Positions 52,117 through 64,000 of a stretch of DNA of 64,000 nt are shown here, in pieces. Each line of letters opens with the position of its first letter. Within the stretch, counting starts at the first letter, position 1. The notes below the pieces were generated by a model. It did no database searches. It was not told where the DNA came from and worked only from the letters and a program-made list of their open reading frames with translations. Both the position numbers and the translations under genes were made by a program. The DNA comes from Bdellovibrionales bacterium. GTDB lineage: Bacteria > Bdellovibrionota > Bdellovibrionia > Bdellovibrionales > CAYMLA01. Where the stretch lies: positions 1,760,001-1,824,000 of the forward strand of contig OZ244239.1 of assembly GCA_965217115.1 (NCBI GenBank), in the 5' to 3' direction.

Positions 52117-53814
52117 GTGGCTAAAAAAGTGAAAAAAACTATTCAAAAAAAATCGGTAAGAACAAAGAAAGCTTCATCTCGAGCAGTAAAAAATTCTTTG
52201 GAGAGGAAGTTTATCTTTGTGACGGGAGGAGTTGTATCCTCCATAGGTAAAGGTTTGGCGGCGGCGAGTCTAGCAACATTGCTAGAGGCGCGTGGGGTGA
52301 ATGTCACCATGATGAAATGTGACCCCTATATCAATGTGGACCCAGGGACGATGTCTCCTCTGCAACATGGAGAGGTTTATGTCACTGAGGATGGTGCGGA
52401 AACGGATTTGGATTTAGGTCATTATGAGAGATTTACATCGGCTCATTTGAGTCGAGCCAACAGTGTTAGCGCAGGGCAGGTTTATGAGAGTGTGATAGCT
52501 AAAGAGCGCCGTGGGGATTACTTGGGAGGAACAGTGCAGATAATTCCTCATATAACTAACGAGATTAAACGCTGTATTTGCAAGGCAAGCGAAGGGTTTG
52601 AAGTGATCATCGTGGAGATCGGCGGTACGGTAGGAGATATTGAAGGGTTGCCTTTTCTGGAAGCTATTCGACAGATGAGGGTGGATGTTGGTATTGAGAA
52701 TTCGCTTCTTATTCATGTAACCTATGTTCCCTATATAGCTGCGGCGGGAGAGTTGAAAAGTAAGCCTACGCAACATTCGGTTAAAGAGTTACAAAAAATT
52801 GGGTTAATTCCAGATTTTTTAGTTTGTCGCACAGAAAAAAAGATATCTAAAGATATTCGTAATAAAATAGGTCTTTTTTGTAACGTTAAAGTAGAGAATG
52901 TTATTGAGGCTGTAGATGCGACAACTATTTATGATGTGCCTTTGATGATGCACGATCAAGGTTTAGATATAAAAGTAACAAATAGATTGAACCTTAAAGT
53001 GAATAAACCTTCTTTGGCAGCTTGGAAAAAGATGGTCAATACGATTAAGAGCCCAAAAAATTCTCTGACCATTGGAATCATAGGTAAATATGTGGGGTTA
53101 AAGGAGAGCTATAAATCTCTACATGAGTCTCTTGTCCACGGAAGCATAGCTAATGAGGTAGAGATCAATATTGTGTATATAGATTCTGAAAAAATCAATA
53201 AGTCTAATGTGTCTCGTGCTTTAAAAGGTTTGCATGGAGTTCTTGTTCCAGGGGGATTTGGTGAGCGAGGTATTGAGGGAAAAATGATAGCTATAGGTTA
53301 TGCCCGTGAGAAGGAAATTCCATTCTTTGGAATTTGTCTAGGTATGCAGTTGGCTGCTATTGAGTTTGCTCGCAATGTGTGTGGTTTTAAAAAAGCTAAC
53401 AGTCGTGAGTTTTCTAAAACTCTTAAAGGGGAAAAGAGTTTTGTAATTGATTTTATGGAGGAACAAAAATCAGTTAAAGACAAAGGTGGAACTATGCGCT
53501 TAGGAGCTTATCCTTGTCATATTTCAGGAAAAACTCGCTTGTCCTCTATTTACAAAAACAAGGTGATTCATGAACGACATCGCCATCGTTTTGAGTTTAA
53601 TAATGATTATAAAGATATTTTTGCAAAAAATGGTATGTTAGCTTCAGGAATATGTCGAGAGAGAAATTTGGTGGAAGTCTTAGAGGTCAGTAAACATCCT
53701 TGGTTTGTGGGAGTGCAGTTTCATCCGGAGTTCAAATCTCGACCGACACAGCCACACCCATTATTTACTAGTTTTGTTAAAGCATCTTTAGCCAAGAAGA
53801 GAGGGCGTTTATGA
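52117..53814 (+). CDS. pyrG: CTP synthase
   Basis: FVTGGVVSSIGKG, PYINVDPGTMSP, GICLGMQ, QFHPEF. Confidence 0.98.
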   Translation: MAKKVKKTIQKKSVRTKKASSRAVKNSLERKFIFVTGGVVSSIGKGLAAASLATLLEARGVNVTMMKCDPYINVDPGTMSPLQHGEVYVTEDGAETDLDLGHYERFTSAHLSRANSVSAGQVYESVIAKERRGDYLGGTVQIIPHITNEIKRCICKASEGFEVIIVEIGGTVGDIEGLPFLEAIRQMRVDVGIENSLLIHVTYVPYIAAAGELKSKPTQHSVKELQKIGLIPDFLVCRTEKKISKDIRNKIGLFCNVKVENVIEAVDATTIYDVPLMMHDQGLDIKVTNRLNLKVNKPSLAAWKKMVNTIKSPKNSLTIGIIGKYVGLKESYKSLHESLVHGSIANEVEINIVYIDSEKINKSNVSRALKGLHGVLVPGGFGERGIEGKMIAIGYAREKEIPFFGICLGMQLAAIEFARNVCGFKKANSREFSKTLKGEKSFVIDFMEEQKSVKDKGGTMRLGAYPCHISGKTRLSSIYKNKVIHERHRHRFEFNNDYKDIFAKNGMLASGICRERNLVEVLEVSKHPWFVGVQFHPEFKSRPTQPHPLFTSFVKASLAKKRGRL

Positions 53815-54797
53815 AGAGTGAAAATATAAGGAAAGAGGCCATTCGAGTTTTAAAAATGGAGGCCGAGGGGGTTTTGTCTCTTATTGATCGGATTGATGAA
53901 AGCTTTGAAAAATCTGTTGAGATGATTTTAAATTGTAAAGGTAAGATTGTTGTTACAGGAATGGGAAAGTCAGGTCAAATTGGGCGTAAAATTTCCAGTA
54001 CAATGAGTTCGACAGGAACGTCGTCTGTGTTCATGCATCCAGCCGAGAGTGTACATGGAGATCTTGGTGTTATTAGCAATCAGGATCTAGTGATTGCTAT
54101 TAGCAACAGTGGTGAATCGTTGGAGCTTGATTACGTCGTGAAGTATGTTGTGCGTAAAGGAATTTCCTTGATTGCAATGACAGGTAATCCGGAGAGCACT
54201 TTGGGTCGGTCTAGTGATGTGGTTCTTAATATAGGTGTCGAAAAAGAGGCGTGCTCTTTGGGATTAGCTCCAACAACGAGTTCCACGGCGACATTGGCTA
54301 TGGGTGACGCATTGGCGATGACGGTCTTAAAGGCAAAGGGATTTCAAGAATCAGATTATGCTGAATTTCACCCTGGCGGAAGTTTAGGACGTCGCTTGCT
54401 AACACATGTGCAGGATGTAATGCATAGTAAAAGGGCGTTGCCATTAGTCCCTTTAGGGACACCCATGCGCGAGGTTTTTTCACTAATGACCTCTAAAGAG
54501 GTGAGGGGTGTTGCGGGAGTTGTTGATGCTCAAGGAGACTTGATTGGAATTGTCACTGATGGAGATGTGCGTCGGCTATTAGATAAGAAGGAAAATTCTT
54601 TTGATTGCAAGGTTGAAGAGATAATGGGACGTAATCCTAAAACCATCGATGTTCTTGAGATGGCAGAGAAGGCTTTGTTTATGATGGAGCAGTTTAAAAT
54701 ACTTCTTCTCTTTGTTGTGGACGGTAAGTCGTCGCAGCCAAGAAGTCCTGTGGGGATTTTGCATTTGCATGATTTGATTGATTCCAAAATACGGTGA
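53811..54797 (+). CDS. kdsD: Arabinose-5-phosphate isomerase KdsD (SIS + CBS)
   Basis: GMGKSG, HGDLG, APTTS, HPGGSLG, CBS pair. Confidence 0.95.
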   Translation: MKSENIRKEAIRVLKMEAEGVLSLIDRIDESFEKSVEMILNCKGKIVVTGMGKSGQIGRKISSTMSSTGTSSVFMHPAESVHGDLGVISNQDLVIAISNSGESLELDYVVKYVVRKGISLIAMTGNPESTLGRSSDVVLNIGVEKEACSLGLAPTTSSTATLAMGDALAMTVLKAKGFQESDYAEFHPGGSLGRRLLTHVQDVMHSKRALPLVPLGTPMREVFSLMTSKEVRGVAGVVDAQGDLIGIVTDGDVRRLLDKKENSFDCKVEEIMGRNPKTIDVLEMAEKALFMMEQFKILLLFVVDGKSSQPRSPVGILHLHDLIDSKIR

Positions 54798-54817
54798 TTG
54801 ATTTTGGCAGAGAAGGC

Positions 54818-54934
54818 GCTTTTTTAATGGACCTCCATTCTTTAGTTCAGACATGCGTTTGGCAGCGGCGCTCGCCTAAGGCGAGCATCGCACCAAGCCG
54901 AACTCACTAAAGAATAGAGGTCCATGAAAAAAGC
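54818..54934. repeat. 117-bp palindromic element, copy 1
   Basis: 29-bp arms GCTTTTTTAATGGACCTCCATTCTTTAGT / ACTAAAGAATAGAGGTCCATGAAAAAAGC, inner palindrome GCTCGCCT-A-AGGCGAGC. Confidence 0.92.
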
Positions 54935-54979
54935 TCTTTTTGAAAATCGCATGGGACTGGGGACAGCGGGGGGTAGAGA

Positions 54980-55154
54980 GGGAACAGCGAGGGGGACAGC
55001 GAGGGGAACAGCGAGGGGGACAGCGAGGGGGACAGCGAGGGGGACAGCGAGGGGGACAGCGAGGGGGACAGCGAGGGGGACAGCGAAGGGGACAGTGAAG
55101 GGGACAGTGAAGGGGACAGTGAAGGGAACAGTGAAGGGAACAGCGTGGGAACAG
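54980..55154 (+). repeat. G-rich 12/11-bp VNTR, copy 1 (about 14 units)
   Basis: GGGRACAGYGAR units plus an 11-bp GGGAACAGCGT variant. Confidence 0.95.
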
Positions 55155-55404
55155 AAATAATCCTGATTTTACAGGAAAAAATGTTCTTAATGAATGTAAA
55201 GCCAAGTCTGAAGCCTGTAGTCTTGCAAGCACAACGATAATAGGAAGTGGTCTTATTTCTTGTGCCATTAAGAGCACTGCAAGAGTTGAGTAAATCTAAA
55301 ACTCTAGGTAAATAATCAAGCATTCCCCTTTGTAGAACGAAAGCTAGGGATTAACCGCTCAACGCTCCACAACTGGGATAGTTTTTAGCGTGACTCTAAA
55401 AGAA

Positions 55405-55698
55405 TTAGAGACATTCTTCTGGGGTCATCAATTTGTGCGTAAGAAGGAGGAATGATTTTTCCCTTGCATCTTCTTCTGACCTAAAACATCTAGCAAATGC
55501 CTGGCCATCATTAAGAGTAAGGGAAGCATAAACTATGCACGAAGGATCATTAGGTATACTTATATATTTTATCTTACTCTTGCAGATACTCCATTTATCA
55601 ACATCTTCTGATTCACAGCCTCCATTAGATTCAGCTAGGGTGGCTTCTCCAAATGAGAACATTAATCCGAGTACAAGCAGTGATAATGTCTTTTTCAT
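55405..55698 (-). CDS. Small secreted Cys-containing protein (cargo A1)
   Basis: AGGAG SD, signal peptide MKKTLSLLVLGLMFSFGEATLA, 5 Cys; near-identical paralog at 56538. Confidence 0.8.
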   Translation of the reverse strand: MKKTLSLLVLGLMFSFGEATLAESNGGCESEDVDKWSICKSKIKYISIPNDPSCIVYASLTLNDGQAFARCFRSEEDAREKSFLLLTHKLMTPEECL

Positions 55699-55930
55699 TT
55701 TTTTTCTCCTAATAATTGAGTATCGTTCTGTTTCCTTGGGAGATTAATTCTCCTAAATCTGACTGATACCGTTAATTTCTAAGGTTCTAGAGTACATATT
55801 CTATGCCATGGAGAAAATAGCTCAGACATCAATCTATCGGTAGTTGAGCTCTTTTGAGGTGTCTAGCCCCTAGCGTAGATTGTCAGTTTGGAGTTTTAAA
55901 AGAGGTTTTTCCTGGGTTCTTTCCCTTTTT
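55699..55930 (-). promoter_or_regulatory. Conserved ~230-bp leader/promoter block, copy 1 (also 57827-58058, 61357-61588)
   Basis: Near-identical block upstream of A1, B1 and B2. Contains the RBS, a GGAGA-N6-TCTCC hairpin and sigma54-like TGGCATAGAATATGT (55794-55808). Confidence 0.75.
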
Positions 55931-55998
55931 TGTGGATGGGAAATCGTCGCAGCCAAGAGATCTTGTGGGGATTTTGCATTTGTATGATTTGATTGATT
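55931..55998 (+). pseudogene. Duplicated kdsD 3' tail (20-bp deletion at end)
   Basis: VDGKSSQPRDLVGILHLYDLID versus native VDGKSSQPRSPVGILHLHDLID. Confidence 0.85.
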
Positions 55999-56012
55999 TT
56001 GGCAGAGAAGGC

Positions 56013-56129
56013 GCTTTTTTAATGGACCTCCATTCTTTAGTTCAGACATGCGTTTGGCAGCGGTGCTCGCCTAAGGCGAGCATCGCACCAAGCCGAACTC
56101 ACTAAAGAATGGAGGTCCATGAAAAAAGC
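56013..56129. repeat. 117-bp palindromic element, copy 2
   Basis: Near-identical to 54818-54934. Confidence 0.92.
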
Positions 56130-56175
56130 TCTTTTTGAAAATCGCATGGGACTGGGGACAGCGGGGGGTAGAGAG

Positions 56176-56287
56176 GGAACAGCGTGGGAACAGCGAGGGG
56201 GACAGCGAAGGGGACAGCGTGGGGACAGCGAAGGGAACAGCGAAGGGGACAGTGAAGGGGACAGTGAAGGGAACAGCGTGGGAACAG
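56176..56287 (+). repeat. G-rich VNTR, copy 2 (about 9 units)
   Basis: Same unit, with three 11-bp variants. Confidence 0.92.
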
Positions 56288-56537
56288 AAATAGTCCTGAT
56301 TTTACAGAAAAAAATGTTCTTAATGAATGTAAAGCCAAGTCTGAAGCTTGTAGTCTTGCAAGCACAACGATAATAGGAAGTGGTCTTATTTCTTGTGCCG
56401 TTAAGAGCACTGCAAGAGATGAGTAAATCTAAAACTCTAGGTAAATAATCAAGCATTCCCCTTTGTAGAACGAAAGCTAGGGATTAACCGCTCAACGCTC
56501 CACAACTGGGATAGTTTTTAGCGTGACTCTAAAAGAA

Positions 56538-56828
56538 TTAGAGACATTCTTCTGGGGTCATCAATTTGTGCGTAAGGAGGAATGAATTTTCCCTTGCATC
56601 TTCTTCTGACCTAAAACATTTAGCAAATGTCTGGCCATCATTAAGAGTAAGGGAAGCATAAACTATGCACGAAGGATCATTAGGTATACTTATATATTTT
56701 ATCTTACTCTTACAGATACTCCATTTATCAACATCTTCTGATTCACAGCCTCCATTAGATTCAGCTAGGGTGGCTTCTCCAAATGAGAACATTAATCCGA
56801 GTACAAGCAGTGATAATGTCTTTTTCAT
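56538..56828 (-). CDS. Small secreted Cys-containing protein (cargo A2)
   Basis: Paralog of 55405-55698 with 3 amino acid changes and 1 codon deletion. Confidence 0.8.
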   Translation of the reverse strand: MKKTLSLLVLGLMFSFGEATLAESNGGCESEDVDKWSICKSKIKYISIPNDPSCIVYASLTLNDGQTFAKCFRSEEDARENSFLLTHKLMTPEECL

Positions 56829-56916
56829 TTTTTTTCTCCTAATAATTGAGTATCGTTCTGTTTCATAAGTAGGCTATTTAATAATGAACCAATACTCATG
56901 TTCCAATAGATGAAGA

Positions 56917-56947
56917 AGGCAGGTTTTAGATAGTCTAAAACCTGCCT
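56917..56947 (-). terminator. Terminator of cargo B1 (duplicated at 60274-60304)
   Basis: Perfect 14-bp stem AGGCAGGTTTTAGA-TAG-TCTAAAACCTGCCT. Confidence 0.75.
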
Positions 56948-56956
56948 ATGATTATT

Positions 56957-57826
56957 TTATTTTTTCCCTACTCTTGCAGCAGTCTTTTTGGGGTCTATCT
57001 TAGTTTGAGAGTTAGTTTTCTGGTTTACTACATTACGCACAACTCTTCCTTCTCCCTTAGCTAGATTAACTATCTTTTTTATAAGAGAAAGATCTCTAAA
57101 ACGTCGTTTAGCGAGGTGGTCCCGCCCTTCTTCATATAGTTCATTTATAATATTAGCATCAGAGTCACGAAATCTAGTCGATATACTCAGAAATCTCTCT
57201 ATTTGTGCCTCTGTTGGCTTTCCATCCACAAATAATTTGAAATACTCTTTCAATATATGCTCCCATACAGCATCTACTTCAACACGCTTTACACGATCGA
57301 TCTCAGTTAGAGCAGGCCAATTTTTTGGTGTTGTTTTAAACTCCTTCTCAGAATTCGTATTCACCATCACTTCTTGCGCTTCTGCTGCTAATCTATGCAT
57401 AATAAGAAACCTAAGTTTACGAAAGTTATGCGATATATCCAGAAATCTTCCCTTTTGTTCTATGTTTGGCGTTGTCATCAAAAATGATCTGAGATTCTCT
57501 TTCAATATATGCTCCCACCCAGCATCTACTTCAGCACGTCTTACACGATTGATCTTAGTTAGAGCGAGCCACTTTTCTGGTGTTGTTCCCAACTTGCTAA
57601 AGACTTCTTGTGCAAATTCTGACATTGCAGAAGTATAAAGCGCGCTCCCGTGGATATACTTAGCTCTTTCACTTCCGAAGAACGAAGAAAATACTGTTTT
57701 AGCCTCTCTCTCATTTGTTACTAGAACCTTATCTTGACCCTCGCCATATGGTATAGATACAGCTAGGGTGGATTCTCCAAATGAAAACATTAATCCGAGT
57801 ACAAGCAGTGATAATGTCTTTTTCAT
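56957..57826 (-). CDS. Secreted helical-repeat protein (cargo B1)
   Basis: Same signal peptide as A; internal repeat TTPxxWxALTxIxRVxRxEVDAxWEHILKE x2. Confidence 0.8.
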   Translation of the reverse strand: MKKTLSLLVLGLMFSFGESTLAVSIPYGEGQDKVLVTNEREAKTVFSSFFGSERAKYIHGSALYTSAMSEFAQEVFSKLGTTPEKWLALTKINRVRRAEVDAGWEHILKENLRSFLMTTPNIEQKGRFLDISHNFRKLRFLIMHRLAAEAQEVMVNTNSEKEFKTTPKNWPALTEIDRVKRVEVDAVWEHILKEYFKLFVDGKPTEAQIERFLSISTRFRDSDANIINELYEEGRDHLAKRRFRDLSLIKKIVNLAKGEGRVVRNVVNQKTNSQTKIDPKKTAARVGKK

Positions 57827-58058
57827 TTTTTTTCTCCTAATAATTGAGTATTGATCTATTTCCTTGGGAGATTAATTCTCCTAAATCTGACTAATACCGT
57901 TAATTTCTAAGGTTCTAGAGTACATATTCTATGCCATGGAGAAAACAGCTCAGACATCAATCTATCGGTAGTTGAGCTCTTTTGAGGTGTCTAGCCTCTA
58001 GCGTAAATTGTCAGTTTGGAGTTTTAAAAGAGGTTTTTCCTGGGTTCTTTTCCTTTTT

Positions 58059-58140
58059 TGTGGATGGGAAGTCGTCGCAGCCAAGAGATCTTGTGGGGAT
58101 TTTGCATTTGTATGATTTGATTGATTCCAAAATACGGTGA
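58059..58140 (+). pseudogene. Duplicated kdsD 3' tail including stop
   Basis: ...GATTCCAAAATACGGTGA, same as the native end at 54797. Confidence 0.88.
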
Positions 58141-58160
58141 TTGATTTTGGCAGAGAAGGC

Positions 58161-58277
58161 GCTTTTTTAATGGACCTCCATTCTTTAGTTCAGACATGCG
58201 TTTGGCAGCGATGCTCGCCTAAGGCGAGCATCGCACCAAGCCGAACTCACTAAAGAATAGAGGTCCATGAAAAAAGC
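58161..58277. repeat. 117-bp palindromic element, copy 3
   Basis: Inner palindrome is perfect here: GCGATGCTCGCCT-A-AGGCGAGCATCGC. Confidence 0.92.
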
Positions 58278-58322
58278 TCTTTTTGAAAATCGCATGGGAC
58301 TGGGGACAACGGGGGGTAGAGA

Positions 58323-58491
58323 GGGAACAGCGTAGGAACAGCGAAGGGGACAGTGAAGGGAACAGTGAAGGGAACAGCGTGGGAACAGCGAGGGGGACAG
58401 CGAAGGGGACAGCGAAGGGAACAGTGAAGGGAACAGTGAAGGGGACAGCGAAGGGAACAGTGAAGGGAACAGTGAAGGGGACAGCGAAGGG
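58323..58491 (+). repeat. G-rich VNTR, copy 3 (about 14 units)
   Basis: Same unit, different order of variants. Confidence 0.92.
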
Positions 58492-58657
58492 TGATTGATT
58501 TTGGTAGAGAAGGTACTTGTTACTTTAGTTACAAATATAGTGATCTCGAAGAGTATTGTTGAAAATGAGTTGACAAGTAATCGAGGTAGTTAGGAAAAGG
58601 GAACCCGCACATTCTCTATTGAACAAGTTCTGAACAAAGCCTCTAAACTACCGTATT

Positions 58658-60202
58658 TTAAGTTTCATTGAGAATATTTAATAGGATCTTTTTTTCAAAG
58701 CCGAATATATAAAATCTATGAAGCATTTTAAGGTAATCTTTTGATTGTTCTTTCTCCAAGGCCATTACCTTAAAAGAGTTAAACACATCTAAGAAATTCT
58801 TAGAGGCATTTATATCATCAAAAATATTTTTTAATATTGGGTATTGAGAAATTTTATCTACGTTGTTGAATTCATTTAAACCTGTTTTAGAAACTGCTGT
58901 TGATAAATATTCATACTCATTTTTATAAAATTTTACAATTTCATCTAATGTGTGTAAAAAAGATTGTTCAAATAAAATCAATTCTTGACGTAGTTCTTCC
59001 GTAGCTACTGTATTTCCTGACTTCTCTCCTAGCTCAATCTTTGCTTTAGTCGATTGAATTATGGATTCTAAGATAAACAGTGTCTCAAAATGTATAGACA
59101 TTATTTTATTTTCTGATTTTGAATTTTTTGGATAATGAAGCATTGGTGGCATAGGTTGATTTTTTTTAATAACAGTACTTGCTATTCTAATAACCTGTTT
59201 TCTTACCTTAAACCCGAAACCCTTAGTGTCGTGTCCAATTCTCCAAAACGCATGCCTAGTTGATTTAATTCCCCTTGTAATTTGATTCTTATATTCGTGA
59301 GGTATAAATAGAGATAAAACTCCACCAGAAACTCCAAACATCATACCTGCAATAGTGCCAGCTCCAGGAAACAATGTCGTTCCAACAACTCCAGCTGTAA
59401 CCATAGAAGTCACTAAAGTAACAAACTCACCAGTGGCAATTCTCTTTCTCCAAGCATTATACAGCCAAAGATTTCTTAATTCATGATTATGCCAAAGAAT
59501 CTTCATCATATTATTAAACACGACCTTAAGAACTCTCCAGTCATCTGCGGAATCAGCTGTGTGTAAAAAAATGCCATATTTAAGTGATCTTCCCAGCAAT
59601 GTCCCTAGCCCTTGAGCTTTCTGATAATCTGATTCATCTTCAATAAGCTCTACTGCCTCAGTATATAATTGCCCACCTAACTCCCAGCCAATAAAAGTGA
59701 CAAAAGTACTAATTCCTGCTTGTAAAAATTTTTTAAGCATTCCATTGGATGTTCCATTTTGTATCAGTGAATTGATAATTTGCAGTGGTTTTGCTGATAT
59801 TCCAGAGACCACTCCAGCTCCGATCAAACTACTCCATATTTCACCAGAATTGACAACATGTCCTGCCGCTTCTTTAATATGAGAAGCAAGAAGGTCCTTA
59901 TCAATTGTTTCAAGTGTTAAATTTGATTGTTCGACATGTTGTCTCACTAAATCAACACCAGTTAATATCATAATAAGCAATATGGCTTGGCCTTGATGGG
60001 CTAACACATTATTTGTATATCTGTTGCTCGCTCTTGTAGATTTACGAGCGGCCTTCTTAGTGAACCTTGCTGCTCTCCAACCACCATAATTCAGAGTAAT
60101 TTTTTCAAGAAAACTTTGACCCTTAGTTGGTGTGTGAATTTGAGCTTGGGACTGATGAGACAGTAAGGTAATAAAAATAAGTATCTTTATAATTATGTTC
60201 AT
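58658..60202 (-). CDS. Secreted/membrane hypothetical protein with glycine-zipper hairpin (cargo C)
   Basis: GAGGGG SD, signal peptide, several hydrophobic helices, TAGVVGTTLFPGAGTIAGMMFGVSGGVLS. Confidence 0.8.
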   Translation of the reverse strand: MNIIIKILIFITLLSHQSQAQIHTPTKGQSFLEKITLNYGGWRAARFTKKAARKSTRASNRYTNNVLAHQGQAILLIMILTGVDLVRQHVEQSNLTLETIDKDLLASHIKEAAGHVVNSGEIWSSLIGAGVVSGISAKPLQIINSLIQNGTSNGMLKKFLQAGISTFVTFIGWELGGQLYTEAVELIEDESDYQKAQGLGTLLGRSLKYGIFLHTADSADDWRVLKVVFNNMMKILWHNHELRNLWLYNAWRKRIATGEFVTLVTSMVTAGVVGTTLFPGAGTIAGMMFGVSGGVLSLFIPHEYKNQITRGIKSTRHAFWRIGHDTKGFGFKVRKQVIRIASTVIKKNQPMPPMLHYPKNSKSENKIMSIHFETLFILESIIQSTKAKIELGEKSGNTVATEELRQELILFEQSFLHTLDEIVKFYKNEYEYLSTAVSKTGLNEFNNVDKISQYPILKNIFDDINASKNFLDVFNSFKVMALEKEQSKDYLKMLHRFYIFGFEKKILLNILNET

Positions 60203-60313
60203 TTTTTATCCCCTCAATTTCATAAGTAGGCTATTTAATAATGAACCAATACTCATGTTCCAATAGATGAAGAAGGCAGGTTTTAGATAGTCTAAAACCT
60301 GCCTATGATTATT

Positions 60314-61356
60314 TTATTTTTTCCCTACTCTTGCAGCAGTCTTTTTGGGGTCTATCTTAGTTTGAGAGTTAGTTTTCTGGTTTACTACATTACGCACAAC
60401 TCTTCCTTCTCCCTTAGCTAGATTAACTATCTTTTTTATAAGAGAAAGATCTCTAAAACGTCGTTTAGCGAGGTGTTTCCGCCCTTTTTCATATAGCTCA
60501 TCTATAATATTAGCGTCAGAGTCACGAAATCTAATCGACATATTCAGAAATTTCTCTACTTGTGCCTCTGTTGGCTTTCCATCCACAAATAATTTGAGAT
60601 TCTCTTTCAATATATGCTCCCATCCAGCATCTACTTCAACACGCTTTACACGATCGATCTCAGTTAGAGCAGGCCACTTTTTTGGTGTTGTTCCAAACTT
60701 ATCAAAGACTTTTTTTGCGAATTTTGACATTTCAGAAGAATAAAGCATGCTCCCGTGGATATCCTTAGCTAACTCACCTCCGAAGAACGAAGAAAACACT
60801 CTTTTAGCTTGCGCTATTCTCATTGTGCTGCAATACCAAACTCCTTCTCAGAATAATTCTCAGATTTCGTATTCACCATCACTTCTCCAAGTGATTTTTG
60901 CCCTTCTGCTACTAATCTATTCATAGTAAGAAAATTAGATTCACGAAAGTTATACGGCGATGTATTCAGAAATCTTCTCTTTTGTTCCATGTTTGGCCTT
61001 GTTCATCAAAAATGATCTGAGATTCTCTTTCAATATATGCTCCCACCCAGCATCTACTTCAGCACGCTTACACGATCGATCTCAGTTAGAGCGAGCCACT
61101 TTTCTGGTGTTGTTCCCAACTTACTAAAGACTTCTTGTGCAAATTCTGACATTGCAGAAGTATAAAGCGCGCTCCCGTGGATATACTTAGCTCTGTTACC
61201 TCCGAAGAACGAAGAAAATACGTTTTTAGCCTCTGCCTGATTTGTTACTAGAGCCTTGCCATATGGTATAGCAACTACACCTGGGGTGGGTTCTCCAAAT
61301 AAAGCTCCACCATAAAAGACTAATCCGAGTACAAGCAGTGATAATGTTTTTTTCAT
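60314..61356 (-). pseudogene. Frameshifted paralog of cargo B (B2)
   Basis: Two ORF fragments homologous to B1; single-base indels near 61067, 61002 and 60826. Confidence 0.75.
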
Positions 61357-61588
61357 TTTTTTTCTCCTAATAATTGGGTATCGATCTATTTCCTTGGGAG
61401 ATTAATTCTCCTAAATCTGACTAATACCGTTAATTTCTAAGGTTCTAGAGTACATATTCTATGCCATGGAGAAAATAGCTCAGACATCAATCTATCGGTA
61501 GTTGAGCTCTTTTGAGGTGTCTAGCCCCTAGCGTAGATTGTCAGTTTGGAGTTTTAAAAGAGGTTTTTCCTGGGTTCTTTTCCTTTTT

Positions 61589-61670
61589 TGTGGATGGGAA
61601 ATCGTCGCAGCCAAGAGATCCTGTGGGGATTTTGCATTTGTATGATTTGATTGATTCCAAAATATGGTGA
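61589..61670 (+). pseudogene. Duplicated kdsD 3' tail
   Basis: Third extra copy of the last ~27 codons of kdsD. Confidence 0.88.
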
Positions 61671-61690
61671 TTGATTTTGGCAGAGAAGGC

Positions 61691-61807
61691 GCTTTTTTAA
61701 TGAACCTCCATTCTTTAGTTCAGACATGCGTTTGGCAGCGGTGCTCGCCTAAGGCGAGCATCGCACCAAGCCGAACTCACTAAAGAATAAAGGTCCATGA
61801 AAAAAGC
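61691..61807. repeat. 117-bp palindromic element, copy 4
   Basis: Near-identical to the other copies; the downstream VNTR is missing. Confidence 0.9.
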
Positions 61808-61883
61808 TCTTTTTGAAAATCGCATGGGACTGGGGACAGCGGGGGGAGGGGGTAGGCGGGGGAACCGCCCAGCAAAGGACAAC

Positions 61884-61950
61884 TCTATGCTATGTGCTTA
61901 AAGGCAACATGACTCAAATTGAAAGTTTACAGACTAATGTGGGAACCGCC
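61884..61950 (-). repeat. Dispersed 50-65-bp repeat, copy c (inverted)
   Basis: Reverse complement closely matches 35003-35068; an extra GGAACCGCC end lies at 61861. Confidence 0.9.
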
Positions 61951-62012
61951 ACCCTATGGTAACTCCTTTGTGGTTTTGTTGTTTTGGTGGGGTGACTATT
62001 TTGCTAAGGATT

Positions 62013-62495
62013 TTACTTGCAAATACCTCGTCTTCTAAGGTTTACAATTTTGTTTTTAAGGATTTTAGTTGCATCAGCTATCTCCTTAACGTATTCCCTC
62101 TGCACAAAAGGAATATCTCCAAATCCGATCTGGGCAATAGGTATTGGTGAAGAATCTCGCACCTGTTCTGTAACTGTTTCTCGGCCTCGTCCGAAGTGAC
62201 GTGTTTTACGATGATAAATACCAAGCTTATAGTCCCAATAGTCCAGAAAGAGCATCTTCTCTTCCGCGGTCATGACCAACAAAAACGGATGACTTATGAG
62301 AAGAATAGGGTCAATCTTCTCAGGCAACCCGCGAGTCCATGAATAGTCAATAAAGCAATCGACAGCAAGTTGAGTCCCAGGCTGCTTACCAGCAAGGCTT
62401 CTTTTTGTGTCAGCATTTAAAGACTGAATCCTTGTACCCATTCCCGAACAAGCAACAAAACTTAAGCTCAACAAGCACAGCATAATTATTTTCAT
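62013..62495 (-). CDS. Hypothetical lipoprotein (cargo D)
   Basis: AGGAG SD, lipoprotein signal MKIIMLCLLSLSFVA-CSG. Confidence 0.8.
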   Translation of the reverse strand: MKIIMLCLLSLSFVACSGMGTRIQSLNADTKRSLAGKQPGTQLAVDCFIDYSWTRGLPEKIDPILLISHPFLLVMTAEEKMLFLDYWDYKLGIYHRKTRHFGRGRETVTEQVRDSSPIPIAQIGFGDIPFVQREYVKEIADATKILKNKIVNLRRRGICK

Positions 62496-62555
62496 AAACA
62501 AATCTCCTATTTATTTTTATTATCAATAAGTGTATCGGACTATTCTCGCTAAAGT

Positions 62556-62599
62556 TAAGCTAGACTAGACTAAGCTAAACTAAACTAAACTAAACTAAA
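62556..62599 (+). repeat. (CTAAA)n pentanucleotide microsatellite upstream of D
   Basis: CTAGA/CTAAG variants followed by CTAAA x5. Confidence 0.9.
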
Positions 62600-62634
62600 G
62601 GCGATTAAGGAGTCAGCTATTAGATAAATAGCTA

Positions 62635-62970
62635 TTAATCTATACACTCCACAAAGACCCTTTCGCCAGGTCTTATTATAACACTCTCGCCTTTATCTAA
62701 ATTAACAATACGGGTTGGCTTGCAAACAGGTAAGTGAGGATTTATATTACAAGGATCTACGATAGCTAGAACAGAGTTTCTTTTTCCGCAAGTTACTAAA
62801 GTTTCTTTTTCAATGCCTTGGAAAAAAAATGAGGGTTGTGTTAAAATAAATTTATCCTGGAAAGACGACGCGAGTTCCCTTTTATTAACCGTTTTAGATG
62901 TTGTTTTTTGCCTCACTCCAGAGCAGGCAACAAAACTTAAACTTAGCAGAGACAGGATAATTATTTTCAT
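62635..62970 (-). CDS. Hypothetical lipoprotein (cargo E)
   Basis: AAAGGA SD, lipoprotein signal MKIIILSLLSLSFVA-CSG, 4 further Cys. Confidence 0.8.
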   Translation of the reverse strand: MKIIILSLLSLSFVACSGVRQKTTSKTVNKRELASSFQDKFILTQPSFFFQGIEKETLVTCGKRNSVLAIVDPCNINPHLPVCKPTRIVNLDKGESVIIRPGERVFVECID

Positions 62971-63027
62971 AGTAAAATCCTTTCGTTTATATTAGTTAAT
63001 TGTAACAAACCTATCGGATTATTTAAG

Positions 63028-63067
63028 CTAAACTAAACTAAACTAAACTAAACTAAACTAAACTAAG
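63028..63067 (+). repeat. (CTAAA)7 microsatellite upstream of E
   Basis: Seven perfect CTAAA units followed by CTAAG. Confidence 0.92.
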
Positions 63068-63187
63068 ATTGACTCTGATAATCTTGTTTAGCTGTTTCCC
63101 AGAAAGGGTTTGGAAGTAGTGTGAAGCATTTGGAAGCCTGTGAAGCTATAAAGGCCAATGAAAATAGTGGGTTAGTGTTCTGGCGGG

Positions 63188-63275
63188 CATTGCACCAAGT
63201 CGAACTTACTAAGGTCCATTAAAAAAGCTCTTTTTGAAAATGGCATGGGTTGGGAACAGAGGAGCAGTGGGGGTC
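63188..63275 (+). repeat. Degenerate right half of the palindromic element plus start of the G-rich tract
   Basis: CATTGCACCAAGTCGAACTTACTAAGGTCCATTAAAAAAGCTCTTTTTGAAAATGGCATGGG matches 54886-54955 with substitutions and a deletion. Confidence 0.8.
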
Positions 63276-63438
63276 CAGTTAGGAAATGAGAAAATGTGGT
63301 GGAGGAGGGGGGGCTGGCAAATATAGCCATAAGTCCTAAGTTAGAGGACTATGCTTGCAGGTATTGTAAAGTTTCTCGACAATGTACTTTAGAGTAAACA
63401 GCGTCTGATTTTTTTTACAGCTTAGAATGAGAGAGAAA

Positions 63439-64000
63439 ATGAAATTATTTTACAGTGCATTTAGATCAGTCCCTATTTTTTGCCTGTTGTGTGCCGTGAA
63501 TTCCTATGGAGCGGTGATTGAGTTTCCTGATTATGAGTTGGCCCCTGAGTCAGTGCTTCCTCTGTTTGATAAAGCAGTGAGTGTCCGTGATCGGCGTATT
63601 GTGAGTAGGGGTCGAATTGAGATGGGTATCTTTTCTGGTTTTTCATTGCTTGAGTCATTCTATAGTCAATACAGTGTTGGTGTTTCGTCGAGCTATCATT
63701 TTAATGAAATCAATGCTCTTCACGCTTCTTTTTTTTACTGGATACCAGGTTTAACTGAGCAAGCTCACTCGTTAAGAGAGAGGCATAATATTTTTCTAGA
63801 AAAAGCCCCGTCTCCAGAGAGTTACTTGACCTTAGAGTATCAGCACTCATCTTTTTATGGAAAAATGAGTATTTCTAAAAACTACGTCATAAACACTCAT
63901 ATCTATGGCCTACTTGGCGGGGGAGTGCAGCTTACTGGGGAGGCAACTTATCCAACGTTTAATTTTGGTTTGGGACAAAAGCTCTATTTCTCAAAATTAT
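63439..64000 (+). CDS. Outer-membrane beta-barrel domain protein (Bdellovibrio/Myxococcales type), partial
   Basis: Hand translation: MKLFYS...IEFPDYELAPESVLPLFD..VSVRDRRI...YHFNE...FYGKMSISK...FGLGQKLYF; open to the window end. Confidence 0.8.
   Translation, partial: MKLFYSAFRSVPIFCLLCAVNSYGAVIEFPDYELAPESVLPLFDKAVSVRDRRIVSRGRIEMGIFSGFSLLESFYSQYSVGVSSSYHFNEINALHASFFYWIPGLTEQAHSLRERHNIFLEKAPSPESYLTLEYQHSSFYGKMSISKNYVINTHIYGLLGGGVQLTGEATYPTFNFGLGQKLYFSKL

Follow-up and report, generated by a model that had tools for sequence, protein, structure and literature searches.

In a Bdellovibrionales bacterium, one front end, made up of an upstream DNA block (P) and a signal-peptide leader (L), is joined to two unrelated families of genes, which we call A and B. 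Both families lie in an 8.6-kb islet (54798–63426) between kpsF and the gene at 63427, within a window of 64,000 nucleotides (nt) of contig OZ244239.1 (assembly GCA_965217115.1, positions 1,760,001–1,824,000); coordinates are those of this window unless marked 'genome'. On balance we favour a history in which one illegitimate fusion gave L and P a second cargo, after which unequal crossing-over and gene conversion copied and homogenised the resulting units. The principle of a shared front end with unrelated cargo is already known from the Lyme-disease spirochaetes, and the present locus illustrates how a predatory-type bacterium may give new small proteins a ready-made promoter block and export signal. 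The genome is a single 2.17-Mb contig, 99.4% complete; one other genome of this family was available for comparison, together with wider sets of 40 relatives and of 151 genomes of the order.

A common leader ahead of unrelated mature proteins

Four minus-strand genes of the islet carry L. A1 (55405–55698) encodes a cysteine-containing ORFan (a protein whose open reading frame, ORF, has no relatives) of 97 amino acids, predicted to be exported, and A2 (56538–56828) a paralogue of 96 amino acids. B1 (56957–57826) encodes a predicted exported ORFan of 289 amino acids with two internal repeats of about 84 amino acids each, and B2 (60314–61356) is a B1 paralogue which occupies three frames in the reference. 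The leader, comprising the ribosome-binding site (RBS) region and the signal peptide, lies at 57755–57862 in B1, with other copies, also on the minus strand, at 55627–55734 (A1), 56757–56864 (A2) and 61285–61392 (B2, with a 12-nt duplication). As an earlier reading made from the sequence only had claimed, all four genes open with MKKTLSLLVLGL after an identical AGGAGAAAAAAAATG. Over the 108 nt of leader DNA, which run from the RBS through the signal peptide, A1 and A2 are 100% identical and A and B1 94.4% identical, while the first 72 nt of the B2 leader are about 96% identical to the others. All four occurrences of the leader peptide in the 2.17-Mb genome fall in the islet; because of this, and because the front ends of A1 and B1 share 96.6% identity across 291 nt, leader sharing is far beyond chance.

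The sequence-only reading was right in assigning an A-type leader to B1, but the supposedly different leader of B2 is the same one with a 12-nt internal tandem duplication, in which …TTTATGGTGGAGC is followed directly by TTTATTTGGAGAA…, and a few substitutions. The duplication accounts for the difference between B1 and B2, which removes the grounds for the swapping of leaders that had been proposed.

Past the leader, A and B have nothing in common, again as claimed. BLASTP of A1 against B1 aligns residues 1–32 alone (24 of 32 identical), and DNA homology stops directly after …ACCCTAGCTG (T-L-A), 0–2 codons past the likely signal-peptidase site, for which TLA is a likely candidate by the −3/−1 rule as judged by eye. 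Because the break is abrupt, recombination explains the A/B relationship better than divergence. Within the A family, the two paralogues differ by three non-synonymous changes, one synonymous change and one codon indel.

Neither A nor B belongs to a Pfam family. Searches for B among 5.8 billion clustered and 1.84 billion representative proteins returned only its own copies and one spurious match, and B was found in none of the 40 relatives. A CUB-repeat protein (P0005) was rejected as a B homologue, as its E-value is inflated by eight identical repeats. Protein searches with A found only its own paralogue, and a search of the genome brought up no sequence from which A or B could have come. Single-sequence structure models gave strands plus a helix for A1 and an all-helical fold for B1, both at low confidence (predicted local distance difference test scores of 47.3 and 38.5); they are compatible with non-homology, prove little, and are too poor for a fold search.

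Joining of one leader to different cargo does not seem confined to A and B. A genome-wide screen found 88 ORF pairs which share leader DNA, 81 of them plain paralogues and seven with unrelated mature parts, the latter falling into three groups: A/B, a lipoprotein leader group, and the pair at genome 2118840 and 2119900. In all three, homology ends 0–3 codons past the processing site. Since three groups with unrelated cargo were found, leader fusion appears to be a recurrent process.

In the contigs derived from reads of the same sample, one contig of run X1 departs from a leader copy at 56765, where the coding part of the signal peptide ends, into 88 further letters; the 30 of these that were shown are absent from the reference, allowing up to three mismatches. 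This single contig may represent a third cargo on the same leader.

The upstream block is a dispersed front end of exported-protein genes

Upstream of L, three of the genes carry P, a block of 184 nt on the minus strand at 57849–58032, with copies at 55721–55904 and 61379–61562. The islet copies are 96.8–98.2% identical, and by BLAST their homology extends to the border of the adjoining copies of the kpsF tail (55916, 58044 and 61574). Across the genome, nhmmer finds 19 matches to P, 16 of which have a co-oriented ORF starting no more than 127 nt past the end of the match. By a fixed rule, 12 of these 16 ORFs begin with a signal-like sequence, as compared with 472 of 3307 background ORFs, which are crude genome-wide calls (binomial, 7e-8); two of the four that fail the rule resemble signal peptides by eye. 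The proteins include an alpha/beta hydrolase, a glucosaminidase, an M64 peptidase, a DUF2145 protein and several without a family. Judged by this distribution, P serves exported-protein genes across the genome as a front end, and it most probably contains a promoter and regulator sites. The genes behind it form a candidate regulon with no fewer than 14 exported proteins, among them several hydrolases. At the DNA level P was found in none of the 40 relatives.

A partial P copy at genome 1972578–1973532 precedes a gene for a regulator with HTH_3 and DUF4423 domains. This is the only clearly non-exported P-linked gene, and the protein is a candidate regulator of the P genes.

The 5' end of P falls on nearly the same base in all full-length copies, while its 3' end varies between profile positions 159 and 184. 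The aligned copies show neither terminal inverted repeats nor target duplications. The most conserved stretch reads TGGCATAGAATATGTA and includes a sigma-54-like TGGCAT-N5-ATGTA. Sigma-54 promoters have GG at −24 and a near-invariant GC at −12, at a GG-N10-GC spacing. Fourteen P copies carry TGGCAY-N5-NTG(T/C)W with the GG-N10-G spacing of such promoters, and the genome encodes rpoN and nine strong sigma-54 activators. The likeness consists of a long conserved upstream block with TGGCA-N6-TG(T/C) at the correct spacing, in a genome with rpoN and such activators; the difference is that 12 of the 14 copies have GT in place of the near-invariant GC at −12, and only two have GC. That P carries a sigma-54 promoter is possible but rather doubtful. 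The strict consensus TGGCAC-N5-TTGCW has three exact matches in the genome, at 597328, 1102192 and 2082934, each 57–64 nt before an ORF start.

Other identities for P were tried and rejected. A sigma-28 promoter has misfitting spacing in a genome without a flagellin match; the flagellin N-terminal family has no match anywhere in this nearly complete genome, whose nearest KpsF relatives are Bdellovibrionota. As a structured RNA, P fares no better: RNAalifold on 14 copies gave −10.36 kcal/mol with a covariation term of −0.57, and double changes in four of 27 pairs. The 5' untranslated region folds as stably as its shuffles (z = −0.10). The Rfam family freshwater-2 (RF02980) scores 25.9–28.2 bits at the four leaders, against a gathering threshold of 49.9, and none of the 151 genomes of the order matched it at E ≤ 0.01; the control genomes were also without a match.

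Repeated units anchored on the kpsF tail

In 11 of 11 relatives, the gene at 63427 has a homologue whose start lies about 130–1050 nt past kpsF, where here 8.6 kb intervene. From this comparison, the islet is lineage-specific and separates kpsF from its usual neighbour, the first conserved gene past the islet (63427–64000, plus strand). The host gene kpsF (53811–54797, plus strand) encodes a protein of the arabinose-5-phosphate isomerase type (Pfam SIS, 1e-28; CBS, two domains, 3e-15), whose nearest relatives, in metagenome-assembled genomes of Bdellovibrionota, are 56–61% identical. Because these relatives align through residue 328, we take the present end of kpsF to be genuine. Its real tail, K1 (54703–54797, plus strand), comprising the last 96 nt of the gene, is the source of three further copies inside the islet.

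Self-comparison gives the order kpsF(K1)–H1–R1–S–A1–L–P / K2–H2–R2–S–A2–L // T–B1–L–P along the first half of the islet's plus strand and K3–H3–R3–core–C // T–B2–L–P / K4–H4–(start of R) along the second. In this order K is the kpsF tail, H a hairpin, R a tandem array, S a spacer of 255 nt between R and A in units 1 and 2, T the 3' flank of B and C a further gene. The islet is therefore built of tandem units, each with a scaffold of K, H and R on the plus strand and one or two exported-protein genes on the minus strand.

The K copies lie on the plus strand at 55917–55992 (K2, with a 20-nt deletion), 58045–58140 (K3) and 61575–61670 (K4). K3 and K4 are 96.9% identical and K1 and K3 90.6%; overall, K2–K4 are about 97% alike and about 90% like the real tail, from which they differ mostly by non-synonymous changes. 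A 22-nt core, TGATTGATTTTGGYAGAGAAGG, begins at the kpsF stop codon (58138–58159, plus strand; also at 54795, 55990 and 61668), and its five matches compare with 0.00 expected from shuffles. The fifth copy, at 58492–58513, follows R3, with the result that H3 and R3 together are bounded by a 22-nt direct repeat.

The hairpin H3 (58161–58277, plus strand) is an imperfect hairpin of 117 nt, recognised by inverted self-matches, and H1 (54818–54934), H2 (56013–56129) and H4 (61691–61807) belong to the same family on the same strand. The four 160-nt H segments of the islet, H1 included, are 98.1–98.8% identical. A profile search places the family at 77 loci in 19 arrays across the genome. By crude ORF calls, each of the 15 arrays with at least two copies has an H no more than 150 nt from the 3' end of an ORF that is at least 150 codons long, and 20 of 25 H–ORF adjacencies are co-oriented. 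The H core was found in three of the 40 relatives, at low copy number. Mobilisation of H by a transposase of the RAYT (REP-associated tyrosine transposase) or IS200 type was considered and dropped, there being no match to such an enzyme in the genome.

R1 (54959–55149, plus strand) consists of 16 copies of the 12-mer GGGGACAGCGAG, which fits a G-quadruplex motif, and R2 (56154–56287) and R3 (58302–58491) are arrays of the same kind; the 12-mer is confined to the islet. Directly after each islet H comes a G-quadruplex motif (54953–54982, 55015–55079, 56148–56177, 58296–58325 and 61826–61862), and five of the 65 G-quadruplex regions of the genome lie in the islet. Elsewhere, long arrays of the C-strand motif stand beside H copies at genome 416620–416968 and 1753008–1753116. 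A second islet, at hldA, has the same order of hairpin, host-gene tail, P and exported gene, and is likewise convergent with its host gene.

One block duplicated whole and the T junctions

T is the 96-nt 3' flank of B (56861–56956, minus strand), and its second copy (60218–60313) is identical at 96 of 96 positions. It forms part of a block T–B–L–P–K–H–R in which 56861–58436 matches 60218–61846, a homology of about 1.6 kb. The 3' edge of T adjoins A2 in one copy and C in the other, the start of C being 15 nt from T. The junction strings quoted in the sequence-only reading are present: gtttc/cttggg at 55730–55740, gtttc/ataagtagg at 56860–56869 and atttc/ataagtagg at 60213–60226. They do not bear out an exchange at TTTC, as both T junctions are the 3' edge of one block duplicated whole, and TTTC is shared while the fifth base differs. 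Of that reading, the joining of a front end to unrelated mature DNA stands and the exchange at a TTTC junction finds no support. The two T junctions may stem from one or two ordinary events, and TTTC may reflect chance or microhomology, or may mark where T truly ends; we found no evidence of a dedicated exchange site.

Upstream of its ATG, A2 has only 36 nt of the front end, without P, and C has 15 nt, also without P. T contains a 14-bp hairpin (56917–56947), which has a T-run behind it on the plus strand and none on the gene strand. As A2 and C lack P, and as this hairpin has no T-run on the gene strand, A2 is probably transcribed by read-through from B1, and C from B2.

C (58658–60202, minus strand) encodes 514 amino acids with a different signal peptide of its own. 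Its family is conserved and functionally uncharacterised: 16 relatives are 33–45% identical, and two of the 40 related genomes gave matches. C can be dismissed as an ancestral kpsF neighbour, since its homologues in relatives never stand beside kpsF. In the ESM Atlas, no match for C reached 0.9.

A proposed history of the islet

From the arrangement of these parts we infer the following order of events. An illegitimate duplication would have created the seam between P and K; microhomology between GGAGCAGTTTAAAA in kpsF and GGAGTTTTAAAA at the end of P fits such a founding step. L and P would then have been joined once to a second mature-coding sequence, by illegitimate recombination just past the signal-peptidase site. 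Only in-frame, exportable fusions would survive, and selection for export would in this way filter the breakpoint. Unequal crossing-over between the K, H and P repeats would have copied units, and gene conversion would keep them alike. That K2–K4 resemble one another and not the real tail, while H and P are near-identical, suggests an old duplication followed by continued homogenisation, from which the functional kpsF tail escapes. T–B–L–P–K–H would have been duplicated whole, and its 3' edge now abuts both A2 and C. By such a route new small proteins would obtain a ready-made front end for expression and Sec-dependent export. The layout of the parts, their identities, the distribution of P and H and the lack of kinship between A and B are observations; a promoter role for P, export, the route of recombination and the order of events are inferences.

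Several observations weigh against this account. P starts at a near-identical base in all full-length copies despite their differing flanks, the order of hairpin, host tail, P and exported gene recurs at hldA, and the fifth core bounds H3 and R3; such sharp, recurrent edges would be a better match for a site-specific or transposition-like process than for plain homologous recombination. P and B are known from a single genome. The models of A1 and B1 have low confidence, and for the promoter role of P, the GT found at −12 is joined by a sigma-70 scan which gave no site in P on the gene strand.

The sharp edges are what a cassette system acting in trans would account for. In such a system H, with the core or the host tail, would be the recombination site and the recombinase would be encoded elsewhere, as in integron-like arrays or in integrase-less islands at gene 3' ends. 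The 19 H arrays with their bias to ORF 3' ends and to co-orientation, the tail-plus-hairpin seams at hldA, the sharp 5' end of P, the fifth core and a third, untyped tyrosine recombinase at genome 743313–744416 all speak for it. However, no integron integrase was found in the genome: of three tyrosine recombinases, two look Xer-like, and the integron-integrase model TIGR02249, whose cut-off is 265 bits, gives 120.7 bits at best. The islet and its surroundings (53000–64000) contain no recombinase. Moreover, the tails are locus-specific, so cassettes cannot share one attachment (att) site, the scaffold (P, K and H with about 470 nt, and R in addition) is long relative to the cargo, and K2–K4 resemble decayed local copies. 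Taken together, we consider a cassette system unlikely.

Distinctly less probable, in our view, is a de novo origin of the cargo, in which copies of P and the leader landed before non-coding or out-of-frame DNA, making A and B young genes. The lack of relatives of A and B in any search, the construction of B from internal repeats, the preponderance of non-synonymous changes between A1 and A2 and the low-confidence fold models speak for this origin. Yet no source sequence for either was found in the genome, the frames are long and open, that of B2 across 349 codons in a contig variant, and ORFans are common in poorly sampled lineages, here with one other family genome at hand. A broader combination, for which we see only a slim chance, has H and the G-quadruplex-prone repeats marking recombination-prone 3' ends at kpsF, hldA and the other H arrays, with P and the leader as a plug-in behind which arbitrary DNA is tested as new secreted proteins, some of them de novo, without any integron.

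A very improbable alternative to the fusion is common descent of A and B, with conservation of the signal peptide and divergence of the mature parts until no likeness was left, as in conotoxins. A conserved leader with a variable remainder gives the same outward picture, but we disfavour this explanation, because DNA identity drops from about 97% to unalignable within a few bases, and the mature parts differ in length (about 75 residues in A and about 267 in B) and in modelled fold (beta-plus-alpha against all-helical, both low-confidence models). It is just as hard to believe that the repeated units are an assembly artefact: although the reference and same-sample contigs disagree by indels in B2, and short contigs end at repeat edges, the copies differ at fixed positions (the 20-nt deletion of K2, the leader duplication of B2, four substitutions and a codon between A1 and A2), one contig crosses the junction between C and T (58567–60247), and the genome is one contig.

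The contigs behind this comparison derive from four runs, all from one sample and none recorded as RNA, and they break at repeat edges. In B2, contigs of runs X1 and X3 have 7 nt more after 60828, one base less at 61002 and one more after 61066. Once these three indels were applied by script, a single frame of 349 codons ran from the B2 start. Either B2 is probably intact in some of the population at least, or the reference contains errors at these positions. No convincing alternative arrangement was found in the sample contigs; six of the eight loose contig ends looked up match other loci of the genome within three mismatches (one at two, one at three).

Relation to known systems

The closest described case is that of the erp (OspE/F-related, 'upstream homology box') lipoprotein genes of Borrelia burgdorferi. 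These are reported to join one promoter/operator and leader peptide to many mature sequences of independent origin, with frequent recombination (PMC10016077). The islet likewise shows a conserved upstream region and leader joined to mature parts of independent origin. It differs in its setting, erp genes occupying one allelic site on cp32 prophage plasmids and encoding lipoproteins of a pathogen, whereas the present genes form a chromosomal islet in a Bdellovibrio-like organism. It differs also in its type-I-looking signal peptides, in its ORFan cargo, given that A and B have no relatives in protein searches, and in that P also serves genes with quite different leaders.

The scaffold recalls other systems. 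Cis-mobilisable elements (CIMEs) grow by accretion of modules separated by direct repeats which contain the 3' end of a flanking housekeeping gene. Here too direct repeats that include the target-gene 3' end, namely the four K copies with H, bound the modules. The islet differs in that no integrase lies in or near it and in its repeats, which greatly exceed what the size of the cargo would suggest and take in a hairpin, a G-rich array and also the promoter block of the cargo. In integrons, and in clusters of attC sites lacking integron integrases (CALINs), imperfect hairpins about 120 nt long stand between small genes, most of them unknown, in an array. The islet departs from them in that no IntI was found. 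Their attC sites have RYYYAAC and GTTRRRY cores at the cassette boundaries; by eye, no GTTRRRY was seen at the edges of H. Whereas integron cassettes are mostly promoterless, co-oriented and read from a common promoter, three of the five islet genes carry their own P, and the cassettes are convergent with the anchoring gene. Correia elements are dispersed repeats which can precede genes. H, whose 77 loci are imperfect palindromes at the ends of genes, and P, as a dispersed repeat before genes, resemble repetitive extragenic palindromic (REP), enterobacterial repetitive intergenic consensus (ERIC) and Correia sequences. The aligned copies of P show no terminal inverted repeats or target duplications, however, and its spread seems tied to exported-protein genes.

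Through this locus, three repeat families of genome-wide spread (H, P and the G-rich arrays) become connected with the way accessory islets grow where housekeeping genes end. If its seams are active recombination sites, they would constitute a new route to diversification of the secretome; if they are not, the islet is a clear parallel to Borrelia erp outside the spirochaetes.

Other leader-sharing genes

The second gene of the pair at genome 2118840–2119277 and 2119900–2120163 has P upstream, the first does not. The two share no more than about 12 nt of RBS and the whole signal peptide, MKKLILCLC(L/F)LGIASPSMA, at 95% DNA identity, and homology stops exactly at SMA.

At the far end of the islet, two lipoprotein genes lie on the minus strand (62013–62495/62501 and 62635–62970). 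Together with a gene at genome 2139750–2140328 they share the leader MKII(M/I)L..L(S/G)LSFVACSG and part of the upstream DNA, whereas the mature parts are not related to one another. Immediately before the two islet genes stand TAAAC repeats of about nine copies each (62556–62599 and 63024–63066), a tract which could vary in length.

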